A DNA stretch of 64,000 nucleotides from positions 1,188 to 65,187 of the forward strand of contig CAYGDO010000005.1 of NCBI GenBank assembly GCA_964348785.1, read 5' to 3'. The notes beneath the pieces are model-generated. The model had not been told where the DNA came from. It saw only the letters and a program-made list of their open reading frames with translations, and did not search any database. How positions within the stretch are numbered: position 1 is the first letter of the stretch; each line of letters opens with the position of its first letter. Shown in pieces: positions 4,641-53,681 of the stretch. The stretch comes from an uncultured Candidatus Saccharibacteria bacterium. Lineage in GTDB: Bacteria > Patescibacteriota > Minisyncoccia > Phycocordibacterales > 2-02-FULL-43-11. The position numbers and the translations under genes were made by a program.

Positions 4641-4650
4641 TTTTAATTTT

Positions 4651-5724: not shown

Positions 5725-5727
5725 AAT

Positions 5728-6318: not shown

Positions 6319-6325
6319 AAATAAC

Positions 6326-6961: not shown

Positions 6962-6963
6962 AA

Positions 6964-7281: not shown

Positions 7282-7290
7282 TTAAACAAT

Positions 7291-9253: not shown

Positions 9254-9259
9254 AAAATT

Positions 9260-10120: not shown

Positions 10121-10271
10121 GGAACCTGGCGGATGCTTTCTGAGTAGCTTCTGCTATTCGTCTGCCGGTGTTTAAGAAAGAGACCTCTATTGCACATAAT
10201 GAATTATTGTGTTATTATTTAAAATGGTAGTTTTTTGAATTTGAACAGGCAACAATCAACTTAACACAGAC

Positions 10272-11096: not shown

Positions 11097-11163
11097 CTGG
11101 CTATCGGTTCTTTCAGCCCTGTCGCTTCTCGCGTCGGGGCTTTTTTATTGTTACTATTTTAAA

Positions 11164-11994: not shown

Positions 11995-12033
11995 ATATTG
12001 CTTTATTTCTTAAGGCGTAAGATAATCTTTCTT

Positions 12034-40500: not shown

Positions 40501-42782
40501 CAAATGGTGTAACAGGCCCTTCATTTGTTATTGGTTCTTCAACTAAAACTGATTTTGTTGTGAACAATGATGGGAATGTTGGTGTCGGTACCACTTCTCC
40601 ATATGCAAAACTTTCTGTAACCAACACAGGCACAGGGCCATCATTTTTGGTGGAAGATTCAACTTCTCCAGATTCAACACCTTTTGTTATTGCAGATGAT
40701 GGTGATATTGGTATAGGAACTAGCACTTCAAATCTTGGTTCTTATAGATTATTTATTGATTCTCCAAATTCACAAACTTTAGGAATAAAAAATTCAGTAA
40801 CCACCAACCAACCTGAAATGCTGACAATGACTGCTTCAGACAACTCTGTTTTAGCTATTAGATATAACGAAGCTGCTCCAACTAACGCTGTCCCCGCAGA
40901 TGTTTGGGAATATAGATCAGGAGGTTCAGGAAGAAAGCAAGTTTTTTCTTACTTTAGTCTTTATCCAACATTGACAGTAGACACTGCGGCTTCAAGAGGT
41001 GGTATCGGTATTGGTACTACTACTCTAGGTTCTAAACTTTCTGTTGCTGGTTGGTCTGATGATACTGCCGGAACTGCTTTAATGTTGATTTCAACTTCTA
41101 CTGCTTCTGCTACTTCTACTGCTTTCGTAGTTGATTCAAACGGAAAAGTTGGAATTGGTTTAAATAATCCTCAGTCGCAACTTCACATATCAGGCAATGT
41201 ACTTTTAAATAACGGACAAGCGTTCCAGGTAGTAGATAGTGCCGGTACTAATAGAAGCGTCTTAACGATGTCATCGGCAGATAACGTCACTTTAGCTGGC
41301 AGGTCAGGGGTGTCAGATATAAATATAATAAGTTCCACTACTTTTATAGTTAAGTCTTCAGGTGCTATTGGTATCAACGATACTACTCCTGATTTCAAAT
41401 TTGAATTAAACGGGCAAACTGGAAGTGGATATTTTGGTATAACACAAGCTGTCGATGGAGATGTGTTTCAAGTTGGAGCTAACGGATTAGTGGGTATTGG
41501 AACATCAACTCCTTTCGCCAAATTATCAGTTTCGGGAACTTCACTTTCAACTTCACCGGTCTTTGCAGTTTCCACCTCCACAGCCTCAGCAACTTCAACC
41601 GCCTTTATTATTGATTCAAACGGTAAGGTTGGAATCGGAACAACTTCACCTTGGACCACCTTCTCTGTAAATGGCGGAGTTGCGATGCCAAGTTTGACCG
41701 CTGAAAGTACTTCAGGAAGCGCTGTTTGTTTGGATGCGGGAGGGGAGCTCCAAGTAAACACAGGTCTTCAAACTTGCACAGTGTCATCTATTAGGTATAA
41801 GACAGATATAAATAATAATACTGGTGGTCTAAGTACGATTCTTGCTCTTAAACCTTCCGCCTTCAAATATAAAGATGGTGACGGAAAAGAAAGAATTGGA
41901 TTTGTAGCCGAAGATGTTGAAAAGATTGACCCAAGACTTATTGCTTTAGGAAGAGACGGTTTACCTCAAGGTGTTCGCTATGAAGATATCACCGCGGTTC
42001 TCACAAAGTCCACTCAAGATATTGCTTTTATACTTTCTTTGGCTTCAAGCACGGATGGCACATTTAGATCAGTTCGTTTGGATGATTTGGAAAAGAGAGT
42101 TTCTGATTTGGAAAATAGAAATGTTGCCAATGTGAGCTCTTCCGGCTCTAATATTTCTTTGCAAGGTGCAGTTGATGCAGTCGTTACATACTTTGAATCA
42201 TTGGGTGTAAAAATCTCAAACGGTGTCGCTGAATTTAAGAAAATTATTACTGAAAACTTTGAAGTGGGAAGTTCCGCAAGACCGGCAGGTATCACTTTGT
42301 ATGATGAGGAAACAAAAAATCCTTATTGTTTTAAGATTTTAGGTGGCGTGGCCACAAGCACTCCTGGCTCTTGTGATTCTATTGTTCCAATTGATTCTGC
42401 TACAAGCACTCCTTCAACTCCGGGGGATGTCGCTTCAAGTACCGCCGATGTAATTCCTCCAGTTATTACTTTGCTTGGCAATAATCCAGCAGAGATTGCC
42501 AAAGGAACTTCCTATGTTGATGTTGGTGCAACCGCAACTGATAATTCTGGAATGAGTATCATGCCAGATATTATTGAAAATACAGTTGATACTTCTGTTG
42601 TCGGCGAATACCGAGTTGTTTATAGCGCTCACGATGCCTTGATGAATATTTCAACAAGTACTCGTATTGTGAAAGTTTTTGATCCGTACGCTCCGATTGT
42701 TCCTGTAGAACCACCAGTTACAACAACTGAACCAATTATTGATAATACTGTATCAACAAGTACAGCAACCAGCACAGAATAG
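28575..42782 (+). CDS. Giant (4735 aa) membrane-anchored surface fibre protein. Order: N-terminal excisionase-type HTH; single TM; long β-helix/β-roll-like repeat region; C-terminal peptidase-S74 intramolecular-chaperone domain; terminal Ig-like (DUF5011-type) domain.
   Basis: One uninterrupted 14.2 kb ORF. Residues about 20-55, YAPDYIGQLCRGGKLECRRVGRSWFV, are HTH_17-like. TM helix IYSLTVSVAVVTFVFFA at about aa 160-180. More than 40 copies of the GNVGIGTTSPxxKLSV(A/S)G motif, plus 16-17-residue N..G.. repeats (NTAVGYNSAFTNTTGSS...). C-terminus SIRYKTDI...LKPSAFKYKDGDGKERIGFVAEDVEKIDPRLIA...GVRYEDITAVL...LEKRVSDLENR matches the phage tail-fibre/endosialidase S74 chaperone. Final PPVITLLGNNPAEIAKGTSYVDVGATATD... 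is DUF5011-like. Confidence 0.85.
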   Translation: MSAGLKIEDRKFIPSKDASKLSGYAPDYIGQLCRGGKLECRRVGRSWFVEETSLVKHCQINGNDKPLTQESVPGYKSSGFEIEDKDRVYVASDFKVENKQENEKTALPKVEEIKSLSNVVILENSKISPSSSGALSLKNNLKTSLLKLPKFPKIDPDFLHKIYSLTVSVAVVTFVFFARGSSFTETVSLFAKNSFDNLNSGFVALVQDFSNLTPKVLANNFAYGFENKIDKKESGLISSFVNHQVFNFGKKASLVFNTTKFASLEFKDNPIGFGKNTALVIFENSSNKVSGLAKNISGMPDRFAFYLSSQKVLINDLMVVTASISESLKQDPLFPIKEFAKNVNLETDKYINNGKNFVLSLFDRSKLPNQFIVVYKVDGTKKLQKTPASQIYIEGPRQVVQNVTQQIKVSGVTKEEVESMLASLNTKLSSEIYKISSATNSNGVYINNVYNTVSHTNKIDKLGSIEISNSTITGSTFSGTTGVFSESVSIGGTLAVTGSSTFSGNTNFDSGVLYIDSVNNRVGISTTTPGFTLDVDGTINATALYVNGSPYIGSQWTTSGTDVYYNGGNVGIGTSSPYGLLSVVGEIIAEKFTATSTTATSTFGGGLSVLGNINFNGELLQDNAPFVGSQWTSTSTGVYYNSGNVGVGTTSPTDLFSVGGVVYIASTTSPSVATNRLYNSFGDLYWNGNLLSSGSIGTWTSSGGNVYRGSGFVGIGSTTPFVTLAVGGDAYVDGNLTASNITATGTATFRNILATSSTTLQNFTFQNATGTQATTTNFFSSIFNGITGIFSSLTSGSATFGSLTATSSVNLSYAGAGNNMLLTTDGSGNVVGSSTPQVASINATSTTATSTFTNLFANQSILGTIIGGTWNGSTIAQSYGGTGFSSYTAGDVLYANGSGNLTKLPIGADGLVLKITGGLPDWQADVTNSGAAGLWATSTDSLVLYPTDSADVLVLGGTATTTTGNILEVIGNSRLGGTVSVGATTTPSASLSINALAGQDSFSIGSSTSSYFLVNKSGNVGIGTTSPVTKLAITTSTGADGLIAGNSFVGNWNDISTYAVFSHSNFRVNGSTNNYALIQDSTGETYLNAASGKEIRFALAGTRAMVLDDNGNLGIASNTPYAKLSVTNTGTNPSFLVEDSTSSDSTPFIIDASGNVGVGTTTPNWKLSVAGIGSFDDYIRASYFTATSTLRASTFPYASTTALSVSENAYFPNNGIWNENGDLGVGTTSPSSNFSVSGNAYITSTLGIGTNDVPQGQLRVAGDTQGLLYVSQLGAADDEKNWYFDAEGGDLYWGINNDAFSGGANYARISRTGVSIDAFEVMYGYNNQAWFKQEVAGIQPYTNSPTARWHIRAGSTAASSAPLKIDSGPLMTSPEIGAIEFLTDKWYGTITTGTSRKEFTLNDQVLTSGRVPFATTNGRLTDDTDLVFTGSNLGIGTSTPYAMLSVAGEVVAQNFTATSTTATSTFAGGITGPGSFTVQSSSGRVGVGTTSPYALLSVHGLGAFDYINVNATTSTSTISGGLSVGGGALNYDFSSGVTSINALEMGALNFEADAGQVSWADLTVTSASVAGLAQSYSAQINSNPILTIFGEADGAGGVRNTLAVGIGTTSPLHQLDILAGSTTDFTTGKTANYYGINVSNQATSSTASIIKSGINITSTGSWSGTSASNIGLYVSSVTGGTNNYDAIFNGGGNVGIGTTSPFAKLSVAGASLSTSPVFAVSTSTASATSTAFIIDSNGKVGIGTSTPSQQLSVQGNGYFTGNLIANTLQFLGIGNNMMLVTDDSGNVVGSSTPQVASINATSTTATSTFAGNLSVGGNLNFNGAFLQNGSPFVGSQWTTSGSNIYYNTGNVGISSSTPVNTLDVGGWIGVATAYGFKQGTTTALIASSTTYGTFVGGNAGKSTNSTGLYNTAVGYNSAFTNTTGSSNTSLGYNSLFTNTGDSNVALGENTLYLNGTGSYNTAVGTRSLYTNSTGANNTALGFGALYTNTASNNVALGMHSLYYNSSGADNISIGYQSSYSNDTGGKNTVIGTQALYTNFSGANNTILGYKSGYAVDTGANNILLGYQAGDAITSGSNNIVLGYDIDAPSNTDSNQLNIGNIIFGTSIDGTGTTISSGNIGIGTTSPGQKLSVAGDILGNNIIGQYFTATSSSATSTFAGGITGPGSFTVQSSSGRLGVGTTSPYAFLSVNSNGLTGPAFNIGSSTQTNFEISNVGSMTVRNTQFGATHNIIARDLTYSFTDGSGSGLGIGTGMYLAPGQIRLGTSVINWTGDPAVVGNSNSIGLAYQAKGFLRVTDGSSGFGNLISNAIGVSTTSPWAVLSVAASSTNSNSIPLFAVSTSTASATSTAFIIDANGKVGIGTTTPYTQLAVQGGIAGDYLNINATTSTSTISGGLSVGGGSLVYDYSSALTSINGLQISGTLKFDTDAGVINWIDLPISAAANNAPQSYSANIGSTEVFTVYGEADGSGNSKNLRVGIGSTTPMAKLSVSGTTTSSTSWAFAVADVASSTKFIIRDDGVIGVATTTPWGLFAINPNGVTGPSFVVGSSTRTDFVVNNDGKVGVGGTTTPWTALAINAQAGTDSFAIGSSTSSYFIVNKSGNVGVGTSTPSVGLHVYKNFQTYQQLASTMVLDSDSYTGLVLSEGGNSKWAIRTQSNSNSDLIFLRNSGTSASPSWDTDNLVFQRSTGNIGIGTTSPGQTLSVAGDILGNNIIGQYFTATSSSATSTFAGGITGPNSFTVQSSSGRLGIGTSSPWTSLAIEATAGQDSFSIGSSTSSHFTINKSGVVNINNGPISATNVPLIVRDTTNDGASSIKVTSNNNSQIALIGPTAFSSNTVLTISATGGGALQLQNYSTGPVTIGTNGGTERFRVNSAGLVGIGASSTPWALLSVNPNAHTSGPSFVIGSSTKTDFVVANDGKVGIGTTSPSQELSVQGNGYFSGNVITSGSLTINDWLNLPAGYGIKQGTTTALIASSTTYGTFVGGNAGKSTNSTGLYNTAVGYNSAFTNTTGSSNTSLGYNSLFTNTGDSNVALGENTLYLNGTGSYNTAVGTRSLYTNSTGANNTALGFGALYTNTASNNVALGMHSLYYNSSGADNISIGYQSSYSNDTGGKNTVIGTQALYTNFSGANNTILGYKSGYAVDTGANNTLLGYQAGDAITSGSNNIVLGYDIDAPSNTDSNQLNIGNIIFGTNISGTGTTISTGNIGIGTTSPGQKLSVAGDILGNNIIGQYFTATSTTATSTFAGGITGPGSFTVQSDSGRLGVGTTSPSALLSVNASAGNDSFSIGSSTSSYFIVNKSGNVGVGTTSPSAKLSVKGDGTTTGRAFAISNSSGAEKFTVLDSGNVRLGVGANAAATKLEIIGSDSSSSVGTEDEIKLIRPLLSLEYPKVASFKLGKWDPGNLTSSSRLDIALKNGANGTYDADTTVMSFLSSGNIGIGTTSPYAMLSVAGEVVAKNFTATSTTATSTFAGGITGPNSFTVQSSSGRLGVGTSSPWTSLAIEATAGQDSLAIGSSTSSYFVVDKSGNVGIGTSSPMYKLNLKTATANYGFMHTDGSVELGTFVWNTGSLPGGWIGTKSNHDLHLFTNNSNPLATLDTSGDFGIGTTSPYAKLSVTNTGTEPSFLVEDSTSPDSTPFIIDASGQMALGTSTTLEKFTQSGGYFRLTSGATNGDGVNNGTYFTDSTGNNELMQATGGKPTYSSGYKVTPAGTAATIQLNTATAFNWYIPTGLSAGSTSGDLTGITTNTMVFNSSGRLGIGTTTPYARLSINGASTGTDNLFLVATSTASATSTAFIIDSNGKVGVGTTSPYAQLSVQGIIAGQSFNADNASATSTFAGGFNVGNGSILYDWNSGTTSIPYLEIGAQNFAADSGIVSWTDLPITSSSANNSVQSYSANIGSTEVLTVYGEADGSGNSKNLRVGIGSTTPMAKLSVSGTTTSSTSWAFAVADVSSSTKFIIRDDGVIGVATTTPWGLFAINPNGVTGPSFVIGSSTKTDFVVNNDGNVGVGTTSPYAKLSVTNTGTGPSFLVEDSTSPDSTPFVIADDGDIGIGTSTSNLGSYRLFIDSPNSQTLGIKNSVTTNQPEMLTMTASDNSVLAIRYNEAAPTNAVPADVWEYRSGGSGRKQVFSYFSLYPTLTVDTAASRGGIGIGTTTLGSKLSVAGWSDDTAGTALMLISTSTASATSTAFVVDSNGKVGIGLNNPQSQLHISGNVLLNNGQAFQVVDSAGTNRSVLTMSSADNVTLAGRSGVSDINIISSTTFIVKSSGAIGINDTTPDFKFELNGQTGSGYFGITQAVDGDVFQVGANGLVGIGTSTPFAKLSVSGTSLSTSPVFAVSTSTASATSTAFIIDSNGKVGIGTTSPWTTFSVNGGVAMPSLTAESTSGSAVCLDAGGELQVNTGLQTCTVSSIRYKTDINNNTGGLSTILALKPSAFKYKDGDGKERIGFVAEDVEKIDPRLIALGRDGLPQGVRYEDITAVLTKSTQDIAFILSLASSTDGTFRSVRLDDLEKRVSDLENRNVANVSSSGSNISLQGAVDAVVTYFESLGVKISNGVAEFKKIITENFEVGSSARPAGITLYDEETKNPYCFKILGGVATSTPGSCDSIVPIDSATSTPSTPGDVASSTADVIPPVITLLGNNPAEIAKGTSYVDVGATATDNSGMSIMPDIIENTVDTSVVGEYRVVYSAHDALMNISTSTRIVKVFDPYAPIVPVEPPVTTTEPIIDNTVSTSTATSTE

Positions 42783-43399: not shown

Positions 43400-45610
43400 A
43401 TGAAAATCGCTTACAAAAATACGTTAGAAAATAAGGACAAAATTAAGGTCGTTATATCAAGGTCGAACCTTGATATCAAGGTTCGACCTTGGACAAAATT
43501 GATATTTTTATTATTTTTTATCTTTTGTTTTTTTGGTATTTTTAGTTTTGCTGATGCTGTCGTGGTTAATACTACAAATAAAGACACTTTAAGAAACGGC
43601 TTAGTTGGCCACTGGACCATGGACGGTAAAGACGTAGTAAGCGGAGTACTCCAAGACAAAAGTGGAAATGGAAACAGTGGTCGATTGGTAAACATTGCCA
43701 CTTCTACTTTCTATACCTTGGGCAAAATTGGTCAGGCGTTTAGGTTTAGTAAGAATCTTAGTCAATACGTTACTATTCCTGATAATTCATCTTTTGATAA
43801 CACTTCAACATTGTCATTTGGAGGTTGGTTTTATCTTGATAGTTTGGTTTCTTTTAATACCATAATATGTAAAAGGGTGGGTAGTTCTGATAATCATTCT
43901 TTTTGTGTGTTTGCCGATAGCTCTGGGAAATTAAATATTGATATTGACGGTTTTGGAGATAGATTTACTAGTACCGCAACCTTATCTCCGAAGAAATGGT
44001 ATCAATTTATGGTGGTTTATGATGGAAATTTGGTCTCAACTGAGCGCGCTAAATTGTATATCAACGGAACACTTGATAGGAGTGCTACCGAAACGAGTTC
44101 TTCAGTACCAAATTACACTTCCACCCTAAGGTTTGGTGAGTTGCAGGGAAATAGTGCAGGGTATATGGGTGGAAAGATTGATGATATTCGTATCTACAAC
44201 CGCGCTCTATCAGCTTCAGAAATTACTCAACTATATAACCAAAGCGCGGGTGACAAAATTAACTCCACTCCAAAAGGCATACCAGCGAGCGGTCTTAACT
44301 CCGGCCTCGTCGGCTGGTGGACAATGGATGGTAAAGACGTAGTCAACGGAGTACTCCAAGACAAAAGTGGAAATGGAAACACGGGAAATTTGGTAAACAT
44401 TGCCACTTCTACTTTCTATACTTTAGGTAAGATAGGTCAGGCGGGGAAGTTTGATGGGAGTGATGATGTTATCGTCGCATCTAGTGATCTTGTCGGTACA
44501 GGAGCAGATTCTATCTGCGCGTGGATTAAACCATCGGGTTGGGGTGAGGGTGGTTTCGGTAGATTGTTTGATAATAGCGTAATGTGGTTTTATTTAGTTC
44601 AGACAGGTCAATCTTTACGCTTTACATCAAACCAATCCAGTGGTTTCTATTTTGATACCACTTCAAGCAGTATCAAGCTAAACCAGTGGCAACATGTATG
44701 TGCGGTCAGAGATGCATCAGGAAGTGGTATTGTTTATATTAATGCTGTTTCTAATAATACTGGCAATACAGGCACTCCCGCAGCTGGTTCCACTTCGTAT
44801 ATAGGTAATCGCGCCGCCGGCGATAGGGCGTTTAATGGATTAATCGACGACGTTCGCATCTACAACCGTGTACTTTCCGCATCAGAAATTACTCAACTAT
44901 ACAACCAAGGAGCTGGCGACAAAGTAAACTCCACCCCCAAAGGTGTTGCAACCCAAGGTCTCAACTCCGGCCTCGTCGGCCACTGGACCATGGATGGTAA
45001 AGACGTAGTCAATGGAGTACTTCAAGATAAAAGTGGAAATGGAAACAGTGGTCAGTTGGTAAACATCGCCACCTCTACTTTCTATACCTTAGGCAAGATC
45101 GGTCAGGCGTTTAAGTTTGATGGGGTCAATGATTATGTAAATTCAAATTACAAGTTTAATTTTGGCACATCGCCTTTTGCGGTTTCGTTTTGGATTAACA
45201 CAAAAATAGCGGTTGCGTTCCGTCCCATCATTGGAGAAGTGCATAACACTCTTGCCTCTTGGACGGTTACCTTTTCTAATCTGACAACAGGCACTCTAAG
45301 TATGCAAATTTATGATGGTTCAGGAACCGATACTGCAACAACAAATGGAACAACAAAAATCAACGATGGAAAATGGCATCACATTGTAGCGTTTCGTAAT
45401 GGTTCAACACTTAATATTTATGTTGACGGGCGTTTGGAAGTTACCCCGGCAACTGACAATCAGAGAAATTATGGCACAAATGCTAATTTTGCAATGATGG
45501 CAAGAGCTGATTCGTTCCTTCCTAATGGTGGAAAATTAGACGACGTTCGTCTTTACAACCGTGTGCTTTCTGCTTCTGAAATTACACAGTTATATAATTT
45601 AGGCCGTTAA
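43400..45610 (+). CDS. Secreted/membrane-anchored protein with three tandem LamG-like (concanavalin A-like lectin/glucanase, PF13385-type) domains; paralog 1 of 4.
   Basis: An N-terminal hydrophobic signal/anchor (LIFLLFFIFCFFGIFSFADA). Three repeats each begin LVGHWTMDGKDVV..DKSGNGN.G.LVNIATSTFYT.GKIGQA.KFDG and end DD(I/V)RIYNR.LSASEITQLYNQ, the LamG_3 hallmark. The 5' coding region contains the REP palindrome. Confidence 0.8.
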   Translation: MKIAYKNTLENKDKIKVVISRSNLDIKVRPWTKLIFLLFFIFCFFGIFSFADAVVVNTTNKDTLRNGLVGHWTMDGKDVVSGVLQDKSGNGNSGRLVNIATSTFYTLGKIGQAFRFSKNLSQYVTIPDNSSFDNTSTLSFGGWFYLDSLVSFNTIICKRVGSSDNHSFCVFADSSGKLNIDIDGFGDRFTSTATLSPKKWYQFMVVYDGNLVSTERAKLYINGTLDRSATETSSSVPNYTSTLRFGELQGNSAGYMGGKIDDIRIYNRALSASEITQLYNQSAGDKINSTPKGIPASGLNSGLVGWWTMDGKDVVNGVLQDKSGNGNTGNLVNIATSTFYTLGKIGQAGKFDGSDDVIVASSDLVGTGADSICAWIKPSGWGEGGFGRLFDNSVMWFYLVQTGQSLRFTSNQSSGFYFDTTSSSIKLNQWQHVCAVRDASGSGIVYINAVSNNTGNTGTPAAGSTSYIGNRAAGDRAFNGLIDDVRIYNRVLSASEITQLYNQGAGDKVNSTPKGVATQGLNSGLVGHWTMDGKDVVNGVLQDKSGNGNSGQLVNIATSTFYTLGKIGQAFKFDGVNDYVNSNYKFNFGTSPFAVSFWINTKIAVAFRPIIGEVHNTLASWTVTFSNLTTGTLSMQIYDGSGTDTATTNGTTKINDGKWHHIVAFRNGSTLNIYVDGRLEVTPATDNQRNYGTNANFAMMARADSFLPNGGKLDDVRLYNRVLSASEITQLYNLGR
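43454..43490. repeat. REP-like nested palindrome, copy 1 (TATCAAGGTCGAACCTTGATATCAAGGTTCGACCTTG), inside the 5' coding region of the LamG gene.
   Basis: The 19-bp unit ATCAAGGTCGAACCTTGAT is followed by its reverse complement. The same element is found at 46131, 50652, 52927 (half copy) and 53617. Confidence 0.75.
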
Positions 45611-45716
45611 CCCCGTTAGAGATTTAACATCATTAAGTTTTGTAACGTAACTACTAATTAGAGTAACCCATGTATAATTTAGTAACATATAAAAAGTAAA
45701 TGAATCTCTAACGGGG
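45611..45716. repeat. 14-bp perfect inverted repeat pair (CCCCGTTAGAGATT ... AATCTCTAACGGGG) enclosing a 78-bp AT-rich segment with a TGTATAAT -10-like box, directly upstream of the GIY-YIG gene.
   Basis: Arms at 45611-45624 and 45703-45716 match exactly as reverse complements. TATAAT at 45673-45678. Confidence 0.5.
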
Positions 45717-45727
45717 TAGATAAAACT

Positions 45728-45988
45728 ATGATTTATACTTACATACTAAAAAGCGATAAAGATGGAATGTTATATACAGGTTGCACGTCAGATTTACGGA
45801 AGCGTTTTAAGGAGCATAATGCTAACAAGGTTGTTGCGACTAAATCTCGGGGGCCGTTTACTATTATCTATTACGAAGCTTGTATAGATGATCATGACGG
45901 TTTTACTAGAGAGAAATATTTGAAAACGGGTATGGGTAAAAGATATTTAAAAAATCGTTTAAAACGCTTCCTTACTCTAACGGTCTAA
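45728..45988 (+). CDS. Small GIY-YIG nuclease-superfamily protein (UPF0213/YhbQ-like).
   Basis: IYTYILKSDKDGMLYTGCTSDLRKRFKEHN matches the GIY-(10-11)-YIG motif plus conserved Arg and Glu. 86 aa. Confidence 0.75.
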   Translation: MIYTYILKSDKDGMLYTGCTSDLRKRFKEHNANKVVATKSRGPFTIIYYEACIDDHDGFTREKYLKTGMGKRYLKNRLKRFLTLTV

Positions 45989-46036
45989 AGGAAGATAAGA
46001 AGATAAATCAAAAATGAAAAATCAAATATCATAAAT

Positions 46037-48322
46037 ATGAAGATAAAAAAGCCAATTTTAATAAATAATGAAATAATGAAAATTACTTACAAAAATACGT
46101 TAGAAAATAAGGACAAAATCAATGTCGTCATATCAAGGTCGAACCTTGATATCAAGGTTCGACCTTGGACAAATTTGATATTTTTATTATTTTTTATCTT
46201 TTGTTTTTTGGGTGTTTTTCAAAAAGCAGAAGCTGTAATCGTAACTCCTGGAGTTGGTTTTGGTTCTACCACATCATCACTTTATAACGGACTTGTTGGC
46301 TGGTGGACTTTTGATAATCAAGACATGTTAAACGGCGCGGTAAGAGATAAAAGTGGAAATGGAAATACTGGGAATTTGGTAAACATTGCCACATCCACTT
46401 TTTACACTCAAGGAAAATTGGGTCAAGCGTTTAAGTTTGATGGGGTGAATGATTATGTGCAAATAAATAACGGTGCAAATGCGCTGAGCGGTTTAAATAA
46501 CACAGCTCTGTCAGTTTGGTTTAATGGCACAGCAAATGGTTTTCCAGCTGTAGTTAATAGCGCGGTATCAGATTTAACGTGGGGGATCGAGTTTAATAAT
46601 AGTGGGACATCTCTGTTTTTGTGGCGAGGTGGTTCGTACCGAACATATACAATCAGTATAAATCTTTTAGATAAAAAATGGCATCATGTTGTTGTTAATT
46701 ACACAGGGAGTGGTGATAGTGCTAGTTTATATGTTGATGGACAACTACAGTCTAGTTTCACTGGGTCTATTGCTGGTATGCGCACAGAAACAGGTAATAT
46801 TGAGATTGGTAGATACCGCACGGGTATAAATTATTTTAAAGGTTCGATTGATGACGTCCGCATCTACAACCGCGCTCTCTCCGCCTCCGAAATCTCCCAA
46901 CTATACAAACAAGGTCAAGCTATAGTTGGAGCCACTCAAAATCCAAAATCAACTGTTAGTTCACTTGATTCAGGGCTGGTAGGTTATTGGACTTTCAACA
47001 ATCAAGATATGTTAAACGGCGCGGTAAAAGACAAAAGTGGAAATGGGAACACAGGAAATTTGGTGAACATTGCCACTTCCACTTTTTACACGCGAGGCAA
47101 ATTAGGACAAGGGTTTAAGTTTGATGGGGCTAATGATTATATGACTACTGCCAGCACTTTTACTCCAACCACAACTTTCACGGTTTCTGCTTGGGTATAC
47201 CCTATTCGTTATGGTATCGTATCTTTTAGGGCTGCATTCGCTACCAGAACCTACGATAGTACTGATAACTTTGGTGTTTGGTTAAGAGATAACGGCTTAT
47301 ATTATATTCAGGTGCACGGTAACGGTACTGATGTCGCTGCGAATACTGTTGCTTATTCAGATAAGAAATGGGACCATATAATTTTGGTTAAAAATACTAG
47401 TAGTCCATATGTAAAATTTTACGTTAATGGAGTATTGAGATATTCTTCCACTTCCAATCCTGACACACTAACCAGCAGGCAACTTGACGTGGGAAGTTAT
47501 TCGAACACAACTGGTCCGTTTTTGGGTACAATTGATGATGTCCGCATCTACAACCGTGCCCTATCCGACTTTGAAGTCACCCAACTCTACAAACAAGGTC
47601 AAGTCACAATCGGCGCCACTCAAAATCCAAAACCAACTATCAATTCACTTGATTCAGGATTGGTAGGTTATTGGACATTTAATAATCAAGACATGCTAAA
47701 TGGTGCGGTGAAAGATAAAAGTGGAAATGGCAACACGGGGAGTTTGATAAACATCGCCACTTCCACTTTCTATACGCAAGGGAAATTGGGGCAAGGGTTT
47801 AAGTTTGATGGGGCGGATGATTATGTGAATCTAGGTTCAGCCGCTATTTTAACTGCTGGCAGTCCGTTTAGTATAAGCTGGTGGGAAAAAATAAATAGCA
47901 ATACAAATAATTTTCCATCTCGTTTTAACTTAAAAATGAATGGTACTAGCAATTATTTTGCTGTGGCTCGGGCTAAATCTTCAGCCAGTTATCAAACAAT
48001 TACGTGGGGTAGGGCACCAAATACGAATTTAGGTATTAGATCATCTGCTGCACCTTCTGTTGCTTCAAGTGTCAAAATTTGGAGGCATTTTGTTATTACA
48101 GGAAGTGATCCCAATAGTACTACTCCTGGAGATTATTCTATATATGCGGATGGTGTTTCGTATGCGACAATTCAAGCTGGTACTTTTTCTACAGATACAA
48201 GAAATAGTATTGGGAAAAGTGGTGTGGACAATGGTGCTGATGCTGTCATTGACGATGTCCGTGTATATAATCGTGCCCTCTCTGCCACTGAAATTCGTCA
48301 GTTGTATAATCAGGGAAGATAA
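46037..48322 (+). CDS. Three-LamG-domain secreted protein, paralog 2. An alternative start is the ATG at 46076.
   Basis: The N-terminus from the second Met, MKITYKNTLENKDKINVVISRSNLDIKVRPWTNLIFLLFFIFCF, is near-identical to paralog 1 including the REP. Three LamG modules each end DDVRIYNRALS(A/D).E(I/V).QLY.QG. Confidence 0.8.
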   Translation: MKIKKPILINNEIMKITYKNTLENKDKINVVISRSNLDIKVRPWTNLIFLLFFIFCFLGVFQKAEAVIVTPGVGFGSTTSSLYNGLVGWWTFDNQDMLNGAVRDKSGNGNTGNLVNIATSTFYTQGKLGQAFKFDGVNDYVQINNGANALSGLNNTALSVWFNGTANGFPAVVNSAVSDLTWGIEFNNSGTSLFLWRGGSYRTYTISINLLDKKWHHVVVNYTGSGDSASLYVDGQLQSSFTGSIAGMRTETGNIEIGRYRTGINYFKGSIDDVRIYNRALSASEISQLYKQGQAIVGATQNPKSTVSSLDSGLVGYWTFNNQDMLNGAVKDKSGNGNTGNLVNIATSTFYTRGKLGQGFKFDGANDYMTTASTFTPTTTFTVSAWVYPIRYGIVSFRAAFATRTYDSTDNFGVWLRDNGLYYIQVHGNGTDVAANTVAYSDKKWDHIILVKNTSSPYVKFYVNGVLRYSSTSNPDTLTSRQLDVGSYSNTTGPFLGTIDDVRIYNRALSDFEVTQLYKQGQVTIGATQNPKPTINSLDSGLVGYWTFNNQDMLNGAVKDKSGNGNTGSLINIATSTFYTQGKLGQGFKFDGADDYVNLGSAAILTAGSPFSISWWEKINSNTNNFPSRFNLKMNGTSNYFAVARAKSSASYQTITWGRAPNTNLGIRSSAAPSVASSVKIWRHFVITGSDPNSTTPGDYSIYADGVSYATIQAGTFSTDTRNSIGKSGVDNGADAVIDDVRVYNRALSATEIRQLYNQGR
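46131..46167. repeat. REP-like nested palindrome, copy 2 (inside the paralog 2 5' coding region).
   Basis: Same sequence as copy 1. Confidence 0.75.
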
Positions 48323-48334
48323 AAAGATAAATCA

Positions 48335-48352
48335 ATCCGCCAGCTGGCGGAT
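48335..48352. repeat. 18-bp perfect palindrome ATCCGCCAGCTGGCGGAT just after the paralog 2 stop; possible terminator or protein-binding site.
   Basis: Perfect dyad symmetry and GC-rich relative to surroundings, flanked by A/T-rich sequence. Confidence 0.4.
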
Positions 48353-48431
48353 AAAAATCAAATATTAAAAATATGAAGATAAAAATGACCAGTTTTCAAT
48401 TTAAGAAAGACAAAATGCAAAAAATAAAAAA

Positions 48432-50537
48432 ATGAAAGATAAATTGAAAAACAAAAAAATATTTACTAAATTTTACAAAGTCACTTTTATCGTTTTTTGT
48501 TTTTTTGGTGTTTTTAATTTTGCTAACGCATTGATTATAAATTCCAATACTCTAAACGCCGGAGGGGATACTCTTAAAAACGGTCTCGTCGGCCATTGGA
48601 CATTTGACGGAGCGGATTTAGTTTCAAATGTGGTGGATAAAAGTGGAAACGGAAATACCGGTAATATGGTAAATATGGCCACAAGTTCCGCAAAGGCGGG
48701 AGGTGTTTTGGGTCAAGCGCTCAAGTTTGATGGGGTGAATGATTATATACGTGTCCCGCATTCTACTTCGTACAAAAGCAACAATCAGGCGATTTCTTTT
48801 TGGATGTACCCCTTACAAATACCTTCTTCTGGCTATGATGGTGTATTAGGTATGATAACAAACGACTCGAATGCGTTTGAGGTTTTTATGGATAACAGCA
48901 CTAGCGTTTTGTCAGCGGGTAGTTATCCTTGGCAATTAACTTATACTATTCCTAAAAAAAATGTTTGGTACCATGTATACGTTGAGACTGTTAGCGGTGT
49001 AGGTAAAATTTATATTAACGGGGTGTTGCAGGATACTGGAAATGTGGCTTACGGAGGTGCGTCAAATACTGCCGATTTTTATATTGGAAGTCGTAACACA
49101 ACTTATTTTTTTCCAGGATATTTAGATGACGTCCGCGTCTACAACCGTGCTCTCTCTGCTTCTGAAATAAAACAACAATACAACCAAGGTGGAAGTAAAT
49201 TAAATTCTCAAACCTTGAACGCCGGAGGCGACATGCTTAAGCAAGGATTGGTCAGTTGGTGGACATTTGACGGCGCTGATTTAGTTTCAAATGTGGTGGA
49301 CAGGGGTAGTGCGGGTAATACTGGGAATTTGGTCAATATGTCCACTTCAACAGCAAAAGTGCCAGGAGCACTTGGCCAAGCTTTGAAGTTTGATGGAAGT
49401 GATGATTATGTTGATATTGCAGACGTTGATGCTTCTCTAGCATCAAACTCGTCAATTTCTGTTTGGATTAATCCGCGCAGTGTCTCAGTAAGTCACAGGA
49501 TATTTGGAGGGCGTACTAACTCAGCTCCCGTTGTAGGTATTTATCCTTCGCCATATGGAATTATTGCGAGTGGTGCAACACAAGGTAATCAGAGGACTGG
49601 TTCAACAAGTACTATCAAATTAAACGCTTGGAATCATCTTGTGGTTACATATGGTGCAACAAGCATACCGACTATTTATGTAAATGGCGTAGAGGTGACT
49701 TATACTGCTTCAACTTATTGGGGTGCTACAAATTCAACTATAGGAAAGGCGGGAGGAAATACTTTTCAAGGGATCATTGATGATGTTCGTCTTTATAGCC
49801 GCGTTCTTACTTCTAAAGAAATTAAACAACTATACAACCAAGGCGGTAGCAAAATAACTTCTCAAACCCCAAATGCCGGAGGCGATAGTTTAAAATCTGG
49901 TCTTGTTGCTCATTGGACTTTTGATGGAGCCGATTTGGTTTCAAACGTAGCTGACAAAAGTGGTAATGGAAACAATGGTAATTTGGTAGGATTTACTTCT
50001 ACAACTACTGCAAAAACGGGAGGTGTTTTGGGTCAGGCGTTGAAGTTTGATGGGGTGGATGATTATGTATCGATTCCAAATAACCTATCCTCTTATTTTA
50101 CTAATCAAGAAGCAACTTTTAATGTATGGTTAAAAAAAATGCAGCACACTCCTTCTTCATCAGGTAATACAGGATCTTGGTATTTTAATGCTTCAGATGC
50201 TAACAATCATTATGTTTGGACAGACGGATCTATTTATGACGGTACTTTTAAAACAACCAGAGATAATGTCGGTGCCGGTCTTATAAGTAATAGAAAAAAT
50301 TGGCATATGGTAACCATTACTAGAAAAGCCGGAGCTAATGGTTGGAATTATTATCAAAATGGGCGACTCGCATATTCTACAAGCGGTGGAACTTGGGATT
50401 TTGCTACTTCAAATTATAAAATTGGTGAGTCGGCAAGTAACACTTATAATTTTTTTGGTGTGATGGATGATGTGAGATTATACAACCGTGTGCTTTCTGC
50501 TTCTGAAATCCAAAAGCTTTATAATATGGGAAGATAA
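48432..50537 (+). CDS. Three-LamG-domain secreted protein, paralog 3 (no REP in the 5' end).
   Basis: Signal peptide-like FTKFYKVTFIVFCFFGVFNFANA. Junction blocks LVGHWTFDGADLVSNVVDKSGNGNTGN and DDVRVYNRALSASEIKQQYNQGGSK repeated three times. Confidence 0.8.
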   Translation: MKDKLKNKKIFTKFYKVTFIVFCFFGVFNFANALIINSNTLNAGGDTLKNGLVGHWTFDGADLVSNVVDKSGNGNTGNMVNMATSSAKAGGVLGQALKFDGVNDYIRVPHSTSYKSNNQAISFWMYPLQIPSSGYDGVLGMITNDSNAFEVFMDNSTSVLSAGSYPWQLTYTIPKKNVWYHVYVETVSGVGKIYINGVLQDTGNVAYGGASNTADFYIGSRNTTYFFPGYLDDVRVYNRALSASEIKQQYNQGGSKLNSQTLNAGGDMLKQGLVSWWTFDGADLVSNVVDRGSAGNTGNLVNMSTSTAKVPGALGQALKFDGSDDYVDIADVDASLASNSSISVWINPRSVSVSHRIFGGRTNSAPVVGIYPSPYGIIASGATQGNQRTGSTSTIKLNAWNHLVVTYGATSIPTIYVNGVEVTYTASTYWGATNSTIGKAGGNTFQGIIDDVRLYSRVLTSKEIKQLYNQGGSKITSQTPNAGGDSLKSGLVAHWTFDGADLVSNVADKSGNGNNGNLVGFTSTTTAKTGGVLGQALKFDGVDDYVSIPNNLSSYFTNQEATFNVWLKKMQHTPSSSGNTGSWYFNASDANNHYVWTDGSIYDGTFKTTRDNVGAGLISNRKNWHMVTITRKAGANGWNYYQNGRLAYSTSGGTWDFATSNYKIGESASNTYNFFGVMDDVRLYNRVLSASEIQKLYNMGR

Positions 50538-50609
50538 AAATAAATTAAATATTAAAAAAACCAAAGAACATCCGTAGACATCCGACATCTACAGAATCAA
50601 AAATAAAAG

Positions 50610-52910
50610 ATGATCAACTTTCAAGAAAAACAAATAAAAAACAAAAAATTTTATCAAGGTCGAACCTTGATATCAAGGTTCGACCTTGATAAAAAGAAGA
50701 GCAATGTTTACACGATTGCGATTTTCTCTTTTTTATTTTTTGGCGTTTTTAATTTTGCTAACGCTATTACGGTTGGAGTTTCTCCAAACGCCGGAGGCGA
50801 CACTCTTAAAAACGGTCTTGTTGGCCACTGGACCTTCGACGGCGCAGATTTAGTTTCAAACGTAGCTGACAAAAGTGGAAATGGAAACAATGGAAATATG
50901 TCAGGATTCACTTCTACCAGTTCTGCAAAAGTTGTGGGGAAGTTAGGTCAGGCGTTGAAGTTTGATGGTGTGAATGATTATGTAAATAATCCTACAAATA
51001 TAGTTTTGACGGGAGATTACGCTATTTCTACCTGGTTTTTTAGTGAAAATGCTATCAATACAAACAAGAGGCTTATTAGTATTGGTGATTCTACTAATTC
51101 AATTTACGCCCATATTTCTACTAATCCATCCGCAGGGAATGCTATTGGACTTAAAAGTGTTCATTGTATACAGAACACTTTATCCGGAGGACTTTCTGTC
51201 GCTCGCTATGCTTTGGCTTCGTCAAATGCGTGGCATCACGTCATATGTAATTACAGTGGCGGGGTTCTGAATAGCATGTATGTTGATGGTGTAATAACAG
51301 CACTTGATGCTGGTAACGGAACATGGGCTAATGATGCTCATACTGGAATTAAGTTTGGTACAAGAGGTAGTTTGGCCACATTTTGGGCAGGAAGGTTGGA
51401 TGATACTCGCATTTACAGTCGTACCCTTTCCGCCTCAGAAATCCAAAAACTATACAATCAGGGCGGTAGCAAATTAAATTCTCAAACTCCAAACGCCGGT
51501 GGCGACACTCTAAAATCCGGCCTAGTCGGCCACTGGACTTTTGATGGAGCGGATTTGGTTTCAAACGTGGTGGACAAAAGTGGGAATGGAAATCATGGAA
51601 ATATGTCAGGATTCACTTCTACCAGTTCTGCAAAAGTTGTGGGGAAGTTAGGTCAGGCGTTAAAATTTGATGGGGTAGATGATTATATTAATGCAGGAGA
51701 TATAGAAAGTATTGATACTTCTACGGCTTTGTCAGGATGTGCATGGGTTAAACATACTACCATAACAAATGATGATGGTATTTTTGCTAAAATTACTGGG
51801 GGGAGTGGCGATGGATTTATTTTCTTTAGAGATGATGTGGGTGCAACAAGTGGGCGTACCGATGGGTATAACATTTATTTTGCTGATAGTGGTGATACAG
51901 ATACTGTGCGTATTGAAAGTGCCACAAATGCTTCACCTCTTAATAAATGGACACAAGTTTGTTTTACTTTCCAAACAGCTACAGCAAACGGTTTACATTT
52001 ATATGTAAATGGAGTTGAGGATGCTAATAGTCCTGTAAGTACAGCAAGTATTGGAGCTATCAATGCGGGAACGGCCATGCTTTCTATCGGAGAAAGATTG
52101 GATTTTTCTAACCCTTTTAATGGAACAATAGACGACGTCCGCATCTACAACCGCGCCCTTTCTGCCTCTGAAGTTAAACAACTGTACAATCTAGGTGGCA
52201 GTAAATTAAATTCTCAAATTCCAAACGCAGGAGGCGACACTCTAAAATCTGGCCTAGTCGGCCACTGGACCTTCGACGGCGCAGATTTAGTTTCAAACGT
52301 AACCGATAAGAGTGGAAATGGAAACAATGGAAATATGTCTGGATTTACCTCAACAAGTTCTGCAAAAGTTGTGGGGAAGTTGGGTCAGGCGCTTAAGTTT
52401 GATGGGGTGAATGATTATGTGAAGACTGGCCTCATCAATCCAAATTCTAATATTATTACTCTTACATATTGGGCAAAAAGACCTGTTAGTACAAGTGGTT
52501 TAGTAGAAATAGAACAAAGTGCAAATTTTAACAGTGTAGATCATTCCTTTTTATCCAATCCAGATGGTTCAAACAATAGATTTTCGGCAGCCATTCACGG
52601 TACGGGAGCCAGTTATAGGGCTGAGTATATTACTCTTCCACAGGCGAATACTTGGAATCATTACGCCATTGTCTTTGACCACAACGTTGCAAATTGTGAT
52701 ATTCGCATATACTTAAATGGAACTGAAAGTGCTACGACTATAACTAATGCAAACTGTGGCGGAGCTGCCGATTTTAGGACTGATAATATTTATATGATGT
52801 CGAGAGGTGGTTCAACTTTATATCAAAATGGCATCATGGACGATGTTCGCATCTACAACCGCACCCTATCCGCCACCGAAATTAAACAACTTTATAATTT
52901 GGGAAAGTAA
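50610..52910 (+). CDS. Three-LamG-domain secreted protein, paralog 4.
   Basis: Same junction blocks, with variable cores. Its 5' end carries a REP copy in a different reading frame (FYQGRTLISRFDLD). Confidence 0.8.
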   Translation: MINFQEKQIKNKKFYQGRTLISRFDLDKKKSNVYTIAIFSFLFFGVFNFANAITVGVSPNAGGDTLKNGLVGHWTFDGADLVSNVADKSGNGNNGNMSGFTSTSSAKVVGKLGQALKFDGVNDYVNNPTNIVLTGDYAISTWFFSENAINTNKRLISIGDSTNSIYAHISTNPSAGNAIGLKSVHCIQNTLSGGLSVARYALASSNAWHHVICNYSGGVLNSMYVDGVITALDAGNGTWANDAHTGIKFGTRGSLATFWAGRLDDTRIYSRTLSASEIQKLYNQGGSKLNSQTPNAGGDTLKSGLVGHWTFDGADLVSNVVDKSGNGNHGNMSGFTSTSSAKVVGKLGQALKFDGVDDYINAGDIESIDTSTALSGCAWVKHTTITNDDGIFAKITGGSGDGFIFFRDDVGATSGRTDGYNIYFADSGDTDTVRIESATNASPLNKWTQVCFTFQTATANGLHLYVNGVEDANSPVSTASIGAINAGTAMLSIGERLDFSNPFNGTIDDVRIYNRALSASEVKQLYNLGGSKLNSQIPNAGGDTLKSGLVGHWTFDGADLVSNVTDKSGNGNNGNMSGFTSTSSAKVVGKLGQALKFDGVNDYVKTGLINPNSNIITLTYWAKRPVSTSGLVEIEQSANFNSVDHSFLSNPDGSNNRFSAAIHGTGASYRAEYITLPQANTWNHYAIVFDHNVANCDIRIYLNGTESATTITNANCGGAADFRTDNIYMMSRGGSTLYQNGIMDDVRIYNRTLSATEIKQLYNLGK
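50652..50690. repeat. REP-like nested palindrome, copy 3 (inside the paralog 4 5' coding region, in a different frame from copies 1 and 2).
   Basis: TATCAAGGTCGAACCTTGATATCAAGGTTCGACCTTGAT. Confidence 0.75.
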
Positions 52911-52926
52911 AAATAGATTTATGTTT

Positions 52927-53657
52927 TATCAAGGTCGAACCTTGATAAAATTAAGTCGAAAAGGGCTTGTTGTTAAGCCATTCTGTGGTATGACTTTCAA
53001 AATCTTTAAAATTTTCAAAATATTGAGGCAAGGAATCTTTTTGTATTATTTTATTTTCAATTCTTTTTTCGCCAAGAAAATCGGAATAACTTGAATACCT
53101 ATATTTTTTTAAAAACAGCTCTGCTTGTTTTGGATTTTTTATACCTTTTTCTTTCCATTCTGGTTCAGTGAGTTTAATTGGATTTAAGTGAACGTATGAT
53201 ATTAAATATTTAAGATATCTATCTGTATCAAGATGAGTATCTTTAAATTTTCCTTGAAATAGGGCACCACTTCTTGCGTATTTTTTATTGAAATACATTG
53301 TATAGGCGGTAAGTAACTTTTGCATAAATTTACTAATGCCGTTTTCAATTTTTTCATGGAGTAGAAGATGAAAATGATTTGGCATGAGGCAGTAAGCCCC
53401 AATCTCAACTATTTTTTCTTTTATTTCTAGATTGAGAATATCATTTAGATTTTTTCCTTGGATTTGTATATGAACTTTATTTTTATTGTTGCATATATAT
53501 AAAAGAGAAAGAAACCTCTCATGATCTTTTTTGTCCAGAAAAATCTTTCTTTTTTCTGTGCCCCTGTTGTAAATATGGTAAAATTCTTCAAGAGAAATGT
53601 TTCGCATGACAAAATAATATCAAGGTCGAACCTTGATATCAAGGTTCGACCTTGATA
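52927..53657 (-). mobile_element. REP-RAYT unit: a REP-associated tyrosine transposase gene flanked by REP palindromes (half copy at 52927-52947, full copy at 53617-53657).
   Basis: The gene sits exactly between two copies of the palindrome that is dispersed in the neighbouring LamG genes. This is the classic tnpA_REP/REPIN arrangement. Confidence 0.7.
52951..53607 (-). CDS. IS200/IS605-type Y1 (HuH) transposase, RAYT/TnpA_REP-like.
   Basis: HuH motif in CLMPNHFHLLL; catalytic Tyr context LISYVHLNPIK; N-terminus YHIYNRGTEKRKIF. 218 aa. Confidence 0.8.
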   Translation of the reverse strand: MRNISLEEFYHIYNRGTEKRKIFLDKKDHERFLSLLYICNNKNKVHIQIQGKNLNDILNLEIKEKIVEIGAYCLMPNHFHLLLHEKIENGISKFMQKLLTAYTMYFNKKYARSGALFQGKFKDTHLDTDRYLKYLISYVHLNPIKLTEPEWKEKGIKNPKQAELFLKKYRYSSYSDFLGEKRIENKIIQKDSLPQYFENFKDFESHTTEWLNNKPFST

Positions 53658-53681
53658 TTTTTAGGTTTGCCTTTTGTGAAC

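Follow-up and report, generated by a model that had tools for sequence, protein, structure and literature searches.

LamG/concanavalin proteins of episymbiotic Patescibacteria have been proposed to mediate host attachment (PMC11310336, PMC12911398), and the nanohaloarchaeon SVXNc encodes three LamG proteins, with up to five domains, in an operon with large adhesin-like proteins (PMC10266531). How ultrasmall episymbionts recognize and attach to their hosts is largely unknown, and LamG/concanavalin proteins are routinely listed as candidates and left unanalysed. We studied a tandem array of four genes, g1 to g4, in a 64,000-nucleotide stretch of contig CAYGDO010000005.1 (the window), each of which encodes three LamG_3 domains with conserved ends and divergent cores. 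The array resembles the multi-LamG proteins reported from the candidate phyla radiation (CPR)/Patescibacteria and from DPANN, which are secreted or membrane-bound, contain several ConA-like/LamG domains, are strain-specific and lie beside very large adhesin-like proteins. Those reports list domains only, and the literature we searched held no description of a fixed three-module format, gene-specific homogenized N-terminal blocks, position-independent reassortment of cores, or a mosaic of GC content at third codon positions (GC3). We propose, with a probability of roughly 0.6, that g1–g4 are paralogues of a huge family in which conserved framework blocks act as recombination points that re-sort old, distinct cores; nothing points to a programmed switch.

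Conserved homology blocks are the sites of recombination in PfEMP1/var domain cassettes of Plasmodium and in mosaic phage tail-fibre and receptor-binding genes. As in the array, frameworks flank divergent binding domains, combinations differ by gene or strain, and breakpoints fall in conserved segments; the S74 chaperone domain typical of phage fibres is also present in a giant protein encoded upstream of the array. Unlike these families, the array consists of bacterial chromosomal paralogues in a strict three-domain format, and we infer recombination from comparative data only. Neisseria pilE/pilS, Borrelia vlsE and Anaplasma msp2 each combine one expression site with silent promoterless cassettes and long near-identical flanks. 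These systems share with the array clustered related sequences, conserved flanks, variable centres and the signs of short-tract gene conversion. They differ from it in that all four array genes are complete, two of them (g2 and g3) sharing a 43-nt upstream element, that the flanks are 52–90% identical, with a longest exact match of 67 nt and most matches of 35 nt or less, and that no variants were found in an independent assembly or among protein clusters.

The open reading frames (ORFs) of g1–g4 were exactly as originally predicted, each encoding a signal or anchor sequence and three LamG_3 domains (Table 1). Module boundaries set by the anchors GLVGxW and DDxRxY gave 12 modules of 212–244 aa. 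All four proteins matched PF13385 over three stretches (207–256 bits against a cut-off of 27.6; E = 1e-61 to 1e-76), with weaker overlapping Pfam matches to Pentaxin, a sialidase N-terminal domain and a toxin receptor-binding N-domain. An AlphaFold2 model of g4 (mean pLDDT 81.3) consists of three all-beta sandwiches connected by low-confidence linkers at residues 287–297 and 531–541. Foldseek matched it with probability 1.0 to laminin LG1-3, clostridial neurotoxin Hc and the trans-sialidase lectin domain, in agreement with the LamG fold that had been predicted; AbnA domain 4 (5hon_A; GH43 carbohydrate-binding domain) aligned with a TM-score, normalized to target length, of 0.79 and a root-mean-square deviation of 2.8. 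Judging from the model, the modules probably bind a carbohydrate or protein ligand. A candidate assignment to the TafC family fimbrial proteins (NF052521, haloarchaeal Tat-fimbriae) was rejected, as scores were 92–122 bits against a cut-off of 410 and only the LamG part aligned. Each N-terminus combines a Lys-rich segment with a hydrophobic stretch and an A-x-A site, which we take from the sequence to be a putative Sec-type signal peptide or signal anchor, and the proteins are probably exported.

The array belongs to a very large LamG_3 family, found mostly in Patescibacteria, and is typical of it. Homologue searches recovered >1,290 relatives in one case and >1,851 in another, nearly all of them three-domain proteins of ~700–770 aa or five-domain proteins of ~1,150 aa. 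Named homologues were all from Patescibacteria (Lloyd-, Taylor- and Moranbacteria, Paceibacterota, Parcubacteria and 'Patescibacteria group'), and related metagenome-assembled genomes carry them as 'LamG domain-containing protein'. A HMMER search over 1.84 billion representatives gave 87,567 matches at E ≤ 1e-3, of which 6,142 reached E ≤ 1e-30; the matched proteins have 3 to ~25 modules each, the longest reaching ~7,000 aa. A g3-based locus search of GTDB genomes returned only a spurious 31% match in Thomasclavelia, indicating that the organism is without a close representative there.

We divided a codon alignment of the 12 modules into an N-block of 59 codons (GLVGHWTFDG...KFDGxxDY), a core of ~120–140 aa, a C-block of 23 codons (DDVRIYNRALSASEIxQLYNQG) and a linker of ~20 codons. 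The layout of conserved ends and variable cores proposed in the original prediction was recovered, and the parts behave differently. Within a gene, N-blocks have a mean nucleotide identity of 0.81 (range 0.66–0.90); the mean is 0.71 between g1 and g2 or g3 and g4 (0.61–0.82) and 0.62 between these two subfamilies (0.52–0.68). C-block identity is ~0.71 and equal within and between genes (0.70–0.72), while cores average 0.38–0.39 whatever the gene, a value close to random that corresponds to 21% amino acid identity. The eight internal junctions, each of ~300 nt, are 83–84% identical within g2 and within g4 and 63–77% identical between genes. The claim that the blocks are nearly invariant in DNA did not hold: they are 52–90% identical, and the longest exact matches are 67, 42 and 35 nt. 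Exact matches of 23–29 nt persist between genes at the block/core boundaries, KFDGxxDY and DDVRIYNR. Block flavour is gene-specific in g1 and g2, and the consensus that had been quoted for the whole array fits g3 and g4 only. In the AlphaFold2 model, the N-block forms the first strands of each sandwich and the C-block the last strand (260–269) and a helix (275–288). A consensus built from 89 three-domain homologues reproduces both blocks, and patterns made from the end motifs found at least 386 phage-contig stretches encoding relatives of 24–36% identity. Because the end motifs are common to the whole family and to phage homologues, and coincide with strand and helix positions in the model, most of the block conservation can be attributed to ordinary protein-level constraint on the fold.

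The blocks are richer in GC than the cores, as had been noticed, and this extends to third codon positions: GC3 is 0.39 in N-blocks and 0.41 in C-blocks, compared with 0.27 in cores and 0.25–0.28 in other window genes. In C-blocks (DDVRIYNRALSASEI; e.g. 46847–46915 and 52128–52196) the effect is strand- and base-specific, with a C/(C+T) ratio of 0.58 versus 0.20–0.28 elsewhere and, at four-fold degenerate third positions, frequencies of 0.37 for C and 0.04 for G. The preference for C-ending codons in C-blocks recurs in four other genomes. GC-biased gene conversion was rejected as the sole cause of the GC3 excess, since the C-block excess is specific to C and the excess is absent from two related loci, L087 and L088 (L numbers designate loci and contigs used for comparison). 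Core GC3 is ~0.24–0.32 in most loci, including L004 (10001–12223) and L005 (10001–14431), despite neighbouring GC3 values of 0.25–0.56; the exceptions are L087 (0.37) and L088 (0.48), and block GC3 tracks or exceeds the local value. The cores could circulate from an AT-rich pool, or could be subject to a different mutational or selective regime.

Several features of the N-blocks point to exchange between modules. N-blocks of the array cluster by gene rather than by position, and the same holds in 42 three-domain homologues, where N-block identity is 0.73 within a protein and 0.54 between proteins, with no effect of position (0.544 for same and 0.543 for different positions); cores within one of these proteins are 0.2–0.3 identical. 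Synonymous differences are patchy, and tracts of identity to different partners alternate along the block. In g4, for example, the N-block of module 1 (m1) equals that of m3 over codons 4–17 and that of m2 over codons 27–48. An odd-one-out runs test on N-blocks was significant for g3 (p = 0.017) as well as for g1 and g4 (p values in Table 1). At identical N-block residues the same codon is used with a frequency of 0.53–0.75 within a gene, compared with 0.42–0.46 expected from codon usage; the frequency between subfamilies is 0.52. The proportion of synonymous differences (pS) in N-blocks is 0.35–0.60 within a gene, as opposed to 0.64–0.77 for orthologous cores and GAPDH when the window is compared with the metagenomic contig L002. 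The original prediction had named selection on protein alone as the outcome that would count against it; such selection explains most of the block conservation, and N-block codon identity goes beyond what it accounts for.

At the family level, cores occur independently of position. The 629 cores of 210 family members fall into 449 clusters at ≥45% identity, and 22 of the 43 recurrent core types are found at more than one position. Among 93 protein pairs with a common core, 89 have exactly one in common, and in 59 of these 89 its position is shifted. The type represented by g4 core 2 (51696–52127) is found in ~20 proteins from different metagenomes, at 50–69% identity and at positions 1, 2 and 3; most other array cores have no relative with >45% identity.

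Two contigs from relatives show the cores of the array in other arrangements. L090, a 1,652-bp JGI contig, comes from a close relative (94% nucleotide identity over the 5′ part of GAPDH). The 5′ part of its last LamG gene consists of core 2 of g3 (97%), a C-block (88%), a linker (83–85%) and an N-block that is 74–77% identical to any window N-block; the 3′ part consists of a core resembling core 1 of g3 (83%) and a C-block with stop codon (64–73%), followed after ~100 nt by GAPDH. In the window, the g3 cores run 1-2-3, and g4 and a transposase gene precede GAPDH. Between these relatives cores are thus 83–97% and junctions 64–88% identical, and lower conservation of junctions is expected if exchange happens there. 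The only internal repeat of ≥14 nt in L090 is a 24-nt KFDGSNDY stretch present at both N-block/core boundaries, which speaks against chimeric assembly and probably marks where the crossover took place. L002, of 3.9 kb, represents a more distant relative (66% amino acid identity in GAPDH). Its last gene contains a core resembling g1 core 1 (63% aa), a core unmatched in the window, and a core resembling g3 core 2 (81% aa), and its penultimate LamG gene ends with a core resembling g3 core 3 (68% aa). Orthologous cores have pN/pS values of 0.13/0.64 and 0.26/0.77, compared with 0.23/0.72 for GAPDH. By this measure, the three cores with identifiable orthologues are conserved units under purifying selection and are not hypervariable.

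The synonymous mosaics, the homogeneity of N-blocks and the non-collinear cores are best read as the result of recombination at the junction blocks. Under the mechanism we propose, framework blocks (strand plus helix, linker, first strands) would be kept mainly by selection on the fold and would also supply the homology for recombination, most probably homologous. Short-tract gene conversion would homogenize N-blocks inside each gene, and crossovers at KFDGxxDY and DDVRIYNR would re-sort cores among positions, genes and genomes. Each lineage would in this way have a repertoire of its own, in this case 12 different binding modules, with a likely role in lectin- or adhesin-type surface binding together with the giant fibre-like protein encoded upstream. 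The time-scale looks evolutionary, a slow shuffling between strains, to judge from the sequence comparisons. The locus and its relatives suggest that the family is huge, that its scaffold is fixed while hundreds of binding cores are interchangeable, that cores are stable units re-sorted between genes and strains at conserved domain ends, and that LamG genes are consistently linked to giant fibre-like proteins. Together, these points yield testable hypotheses about host range. The value of the locus lies in this family-level pattern, and the array in the window is not itself exceptional.

Several observations weigh against reassortment at the blocks or limit its extent. The N-block mosaic is not significant in g2 (runs test, p = 0.33). 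Block pS of 0.35–0.60 is still high, suggesting that conversions would be short, old or rare, and some cross-genome N-block pairs have similarly low pS (0.38–0.49), so that part of the block signal could come from synonymous constraint rather than recent exchange. The block GC3 excess has the same direction in loci of other genomes except L087 and L088, and the C-specific excess in C-blocks is not a simple signature of GC-biased conversion. Reassortment between relatives is seen on two short contigs (1.65 and 3.9 kb) that could in principle be mis-assembled, and the homologue sample was chosen by similarity to the array proteins, which biases the counts.

A bolder version of this proposal, that the framework blocks are maintained as the recombination handles of a combinatorial cassette system in Patescibacteria, is in our view doubtful. 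If it were true, hundreds of conserved cores would be continually re-sorted among three-slot genes linked to a giant fibre and traded across lineages, and attachment to host or prey could be retuned quickly. The raised GC3 and synonymous conservation of blocks and the low, genome-independent GC3 of cores would then be its footprints.

It is improbable that protein-level constraint alone produced the array, with old tandem duplicates whose ends were kept by the fold while the cores drifted and the blocks never recombined. Such a history would account for block motifs that are common to the family and its phage homologues, for the modest DNA identity of the blocks and their pS of 0.35–0.9, for C-blocks that are equally similar within and between genes, and for the lack of a mosaic signal in g2. 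It does not account for N-blocks that are specific to the gene and not to the position, both in the array and in the 42 homologues, for significant mosaic tracts in three genes, or for codon identity in excess of codon usage. Nor does it explain why relatives carry the same cores at other positions and in other genes, or why cores are better conserved than junctions between close relatives.

We consider it quite unlikely that the array is a device for programmed, high-frequency variation, in which conversion or crossing-over makes chimeric adhesins that change host specificity or escape recognition; the proposal of recombination-driven variation found comparative support at the junctions, but an antigenic-variation device did not. 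The mosaic tracts, the 67-nt identical patch, the raised block GC3 and the re-ordering of modules even in the relative represented by L090 would fit such a device, and the surroundings of the array offer factors that might stimulate exchange: mobile palindromic elements (REPINs, described below) at three gene 5′ ends, a Y1 transposase gene related to REP-associated tyrosine transposases (RAYTs) at the array end, and a GIY-YIG nuclease ORF inside the array. We know of no case, however, in which RAYTs catalyse such exchanges, and neither a reverse transcriptase nor a site-specific or dedicated recombinase was present among the larger window ORFs scanned. There are no promoterless or truncated donor cassettes, as each of g1–g4 is complete with its own start and signal peptide, and homology tracts are short and diverged. 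An independent Logan contig from the same population (L001) is 100% identical to 46180–50678 of the window (4.5 kb, including g3). All g1–g4 proteins form singleton 90% clusters among ~15 billion sequences, with no near-identical variants, and purifying selection on the three cores with identifiable orthologues also speaks against rapid variation.

That the re-ordering in L090 and L002 is an artefact, in which short-read assemblers joined modules through repeated junction blocks, we judge to be very unlikely. Both contigs are short, the crossover inferred for L090 falls in a repeated block, and L001 breaks at repeats. The longest internal exact repeats, however, are 24 nt in L090 and 23 nt in L002, and the final k-mer sizes usually used by assemblers are longer than 24 nt. 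L090 would require two false joins, from core 2 to the core resembling core 1 and from the latter through the stop codon to GAPDH. Two independent samples and assemblers each place a different core beside GAPDH, and core types are position-independent in many long contigs. The ends of L001 (window positions 46180 and 50678) lie just past one REPIN and inside another, so REPINs and not LamG junction blocks appear to limit short-read assembly at the array; for annotation and assembly in general, breaks are to be expected at both. Hypermutation of the cores by a dedicated mechanism, such as one of the diversity-generating retroelements that are common in Patescibacteria, was rejected as extremely improbable: although fusions with PF05635 four-helix-bundle (Avd-like) ORFs are called in some members of the family and one such ORF lies at 55868–56236, no reverse transcriptase was present among the larger window ORFs scanned, the repeats found are LamG junctions and REPs only and include no template/variable repeat pair, cores are ~20% identical to each other and thus not point-mutated copies, and orthologous cores are 63–97% conserved with low pN/pS.

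Table 1. Coordinates of the LamG array, its modules and junctions, and associated elements in the window (g, gene; m, module; ~, approximate).
Feature	Position	Strand	Description	Evidence or remarks
g1	43400-45610	+	736 aa, three-domain LamG_3 protein, predicted exported	ORF; three PF13385 matches, E = 1.5e-76
g1 modules	43598-44302, 44303-44968, 44969-45607	+	cores ~43775-44176, 44480-44842, 45146-45535	
g1 junction 1	44177-44479	+	C-block, linker and N-block	alignment; repeat families D1, D3
g1 junction 2	44843-45145	+		alignment, repeats; g1 N-block mosaic p = 0.0046
g2	46037-48322	+	761 aa from 46037, three-domain LamG_3 protein	ORF; Pfam; alignment
g2 modules	46289-46972, 46973-47656, 47657-48319	+	cores ~46466-46846, 47150-47530, 47834-48247	
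g2 junction 1	46847-47149	+		alignment; repeat D3 reference copy 46841-47140
g2 junction 2	47531-47833	+		84% identical to g2 junction 1 over 300 nt
g3	48432-50537	+	701 aa, three-domain LamG_3 protein; short, ordinary predicted signal peptide without REPIN	
g3 modules	48582-49244, 49245-49898, 49899-50534	+	cores ~48759-49121, 49422-49775, 50076-50462	
g3 junction 1	49122-49421	+		repeat D4; alignment
g3 junction 2	49776-50075	+		N-block of g3m3 nearer to g4 N-blocks (0.77-0.82) than to g3m2 (0.66)
g4	50610-52910	+	766 aa, three-domain LamG_3 protein	ORF; Pfam; AlphaFold2; Foldseek
g4 modules	50814-51518, 51519-52250, 52251-52907	+	cores ~50991-51395, 51696-52127, 52428-52835	
g4 junction 1	51396-51695	+		holds 67-nt exact match to first g4 N-block (50890 / 51595)
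g4 junction 2	52128-52427	+		83% identical to g4 junction 1 over 284 nt; g4 runs test p = 0.0014
Giant protein	28575-42782	+	4735 aa, Ser/Thr/Gly-rich; hydrophobic segment near residue 170	sequence, Pfam
Structured inverted repeat	45611-45716		106 nt, before GIY-YIG ORF; closed by CCCCGTTAGAGATT / AATCTCTAACGGGG	-31.9 kcal/mol, z = -5.3
GIY-YIG nuclease ORF	45728-45988	+	86 aa, between g1 and g2	PF01541, E = 3e-15
REPIN (two inverted 21-nt REPs)	43454-43495	.	in frame in n-region of g1 predicted signal peptide	16-bp hairpin, -27.8 kcal/mol
REPIN	46130-46171	.	in g2 N-terminal coding region	
REPIN	50651-50692	.	in g4 N-terminal coding region, in a frame different from g1/g2	hairpin -33 kcal/mol, z = -11.6
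Single REP	52926-52948		brackets Y1 gene on one side	
Y1 transposase gene	52951-53607	-	IS200-like Y1 (HUH) transposase, RAYT-like	PF01797, 41.5 bits vs cut-off 23, E = 1.7e-10
REPIN	53617-53658		brackets Y1 gene on other side	

As originally predicted, the array lies downstream of a giant surface protein gene, with an NYN ORF of 172 aa between them. Pfam identified a Peptidase_S74 intramolecular chaperone domain at residues 4404–4455 of the giant protein and an Ig-like domain near its C-terminus (4631–4701), and the protein is homologous to giant proteins of L003 and L005. Its first ~60 residues, which precede the membrane segment and share 46% identity with the beginning of the L005 giant, look by eye like a small excisionase/MerR-like DNA-binding domain. 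A giant or S74-domain protein is encoded directly upstream of LamG genes in L003, L087 (with a 4-nt overlap), L088 and L089; in L005 a giant protein gene is near the LamG genes without being adjacent, and in L004 no giant gene was found within 10 kb of the LamG gene. In L088 the order is that of the window (giant, small ORF, LamG array and, further on, GAPDH, RpiB, Rpe and Tkt), the difference being that three further ORFs separate the LamG array from GAPDH. The linkage thus recurs in five loci and represents a conserved gene neighbourhood; this supports a joint surface function without proving it, and the giant and LamG proteins may well act as partners.

The palindromic elements at the array belong to a different system, outside the LamG architecture. 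In the known arrangement, a Y1 transposase (RAYT) gene is flanked by its own repetitive extragenic palindromic elements, or REPs (PMC3116915, PMC3337134). The locus likewise has a single Y1 gene flanked by its own palindromic REPs, with inverted doublets of the same REP (REPINs) dispersed nearby. The transposase sequence contains the HUH motif (PNHFHLLL) and a Tyr region, and it scored 45.9 bits against the NCBIfam RAYT equivalog model REP_Tyr_transpos (NF047646), below the cut-off of 80, so it may be at best a distant RAYT relative. The 21-nt palindrome, TATCAAGGT-CGA-ACCTTGATA, occurs only at 43.4–53.7 kb of the window (16 strand matches against 0.01 expected), and no copy is more than 10 kb from the transposase gene. 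Classical REPs, described mainly in Proteobacteria, are extragenic, whereas here three of the five sites are in signal-peptide coding sequence of a Patescibacteria-type genome. Rickettsia palindromic elements also have copies in frame inside coding regions, and the REPINs of g1, g2 and g4 resemble them in this respect. The literature we searched contained no link between RAYT/REPIN systems and Patescibacteria.

The translated REPINs of g1, g2 and g4, read in two different frames, separate the Lys-rich N-terminus of the predicted signal peptide from its hydrophobic core, giving the peptide ..ISRSNLDIKVRPW.. in g1 (43400–43560) and g2 (46076–46236) and ..YQGRTLISRFDLD.. in g4 (50610–50765). In g4 there is no alternative start codon downstream of the REPIN; g3 and the L002 homologue are without the insert. 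In g2, an ATG at 46076 corresponds in the alignment to the start of g1; a protein begun there would have 748 aa. Counted from these two positions, the 5′ ends of g1 and g2 are 95% identical across 120–135 nt, in line with the near-identity noted originally, and 42 nt of this common end are the REPIN. The leaders of g1 and g4 match in inverted orientation over 71 nt; this match was dismissed as a separate element because it consists of the palindromic REPIN and A/T-rich flanks. REPIN hairpins are 16–21 bp long with folding energies of -28 to -35 kcal/mol, and the predicted g1, g2 and g4 mRNAs would carry such a hairpin 40–55 nt past the start codon. Terminator-like matches were mostly REPIN hairpins, an Rfam search of 42–57 kb gave only a chance miRNA-model match, on a REPIN, and a promoter scan was uninformative (41 sites against 37 expected). 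The 43-nt element (AAAAATCAAATATCATAAATATGAAGATAAAAA...) is located at 46017–46059 (g2), 48353–48395 (g3) and ~582–625 of L002. Its ATG before g3 opens an upstream ORF of 20 codons, whose closing ATGA follows A-rich runs and overlaps the start of g3; the equivalent ATG in L002 is the start of the full-length LamG protein.

An exact scan for the REPIN gave no match in 185,579 GTDB species genomes and one match in metagenomes. This was in L007 (Ga0209542_10289768, 952–987), a more GC-rich metagenomic relative, where an identical 36-nt REPIN is directly 5′ of a 54% identical Y1 transposase gene, beside the GAPDH start. In L004 a different palindrome (21499–21519; 9-bp stem, 3-nt loop) occurs with a Y1 gene, beside the LamG gene.

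The window is chromosomal. Its first part contains, in this order, a nonulosonic-acid and O-antigen-ligase cluster, MurB, SecA, Obg, GatB and the giant protein gene, and its second part the NYN ORF, the array, the Y1 transposase gene, GAPDH, a pilin-like ORF and pentose-phosphate genes. The surface-glycan cluster (2163–14283), upstream of MurB and SecA, encodes a PseB-like dehydratase, NeuB (nonulosonic acid synthase), a DegT aminotransferase, a CMP-sugar cytidylyltransferase, a capsule-synthesis-like protein and an O-antigen-ligase/TPR protein. A prepilin-type (N_methyl) pilin-like ORF (54784–55356) and a 23S_rRNA_IVP four-helix-bundle ORF (55868–56236) are interspersed among GAPDH, RpiB and Rpe, and neither is present at the syntenic L088 locus. 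Together with the RAYT, GIY-YIG and NYN ORFs, these look like small insertions into a conserved gene order. The structured inverted repeat that precedes the GIY-YIG ORF has no Rfam match. In L087, too, a GIY-YIG ORF lies upstream of the paired S74 and LamG genes, and P0053, a member of the family, is called as a fusion of LamG with GIY-YIG.

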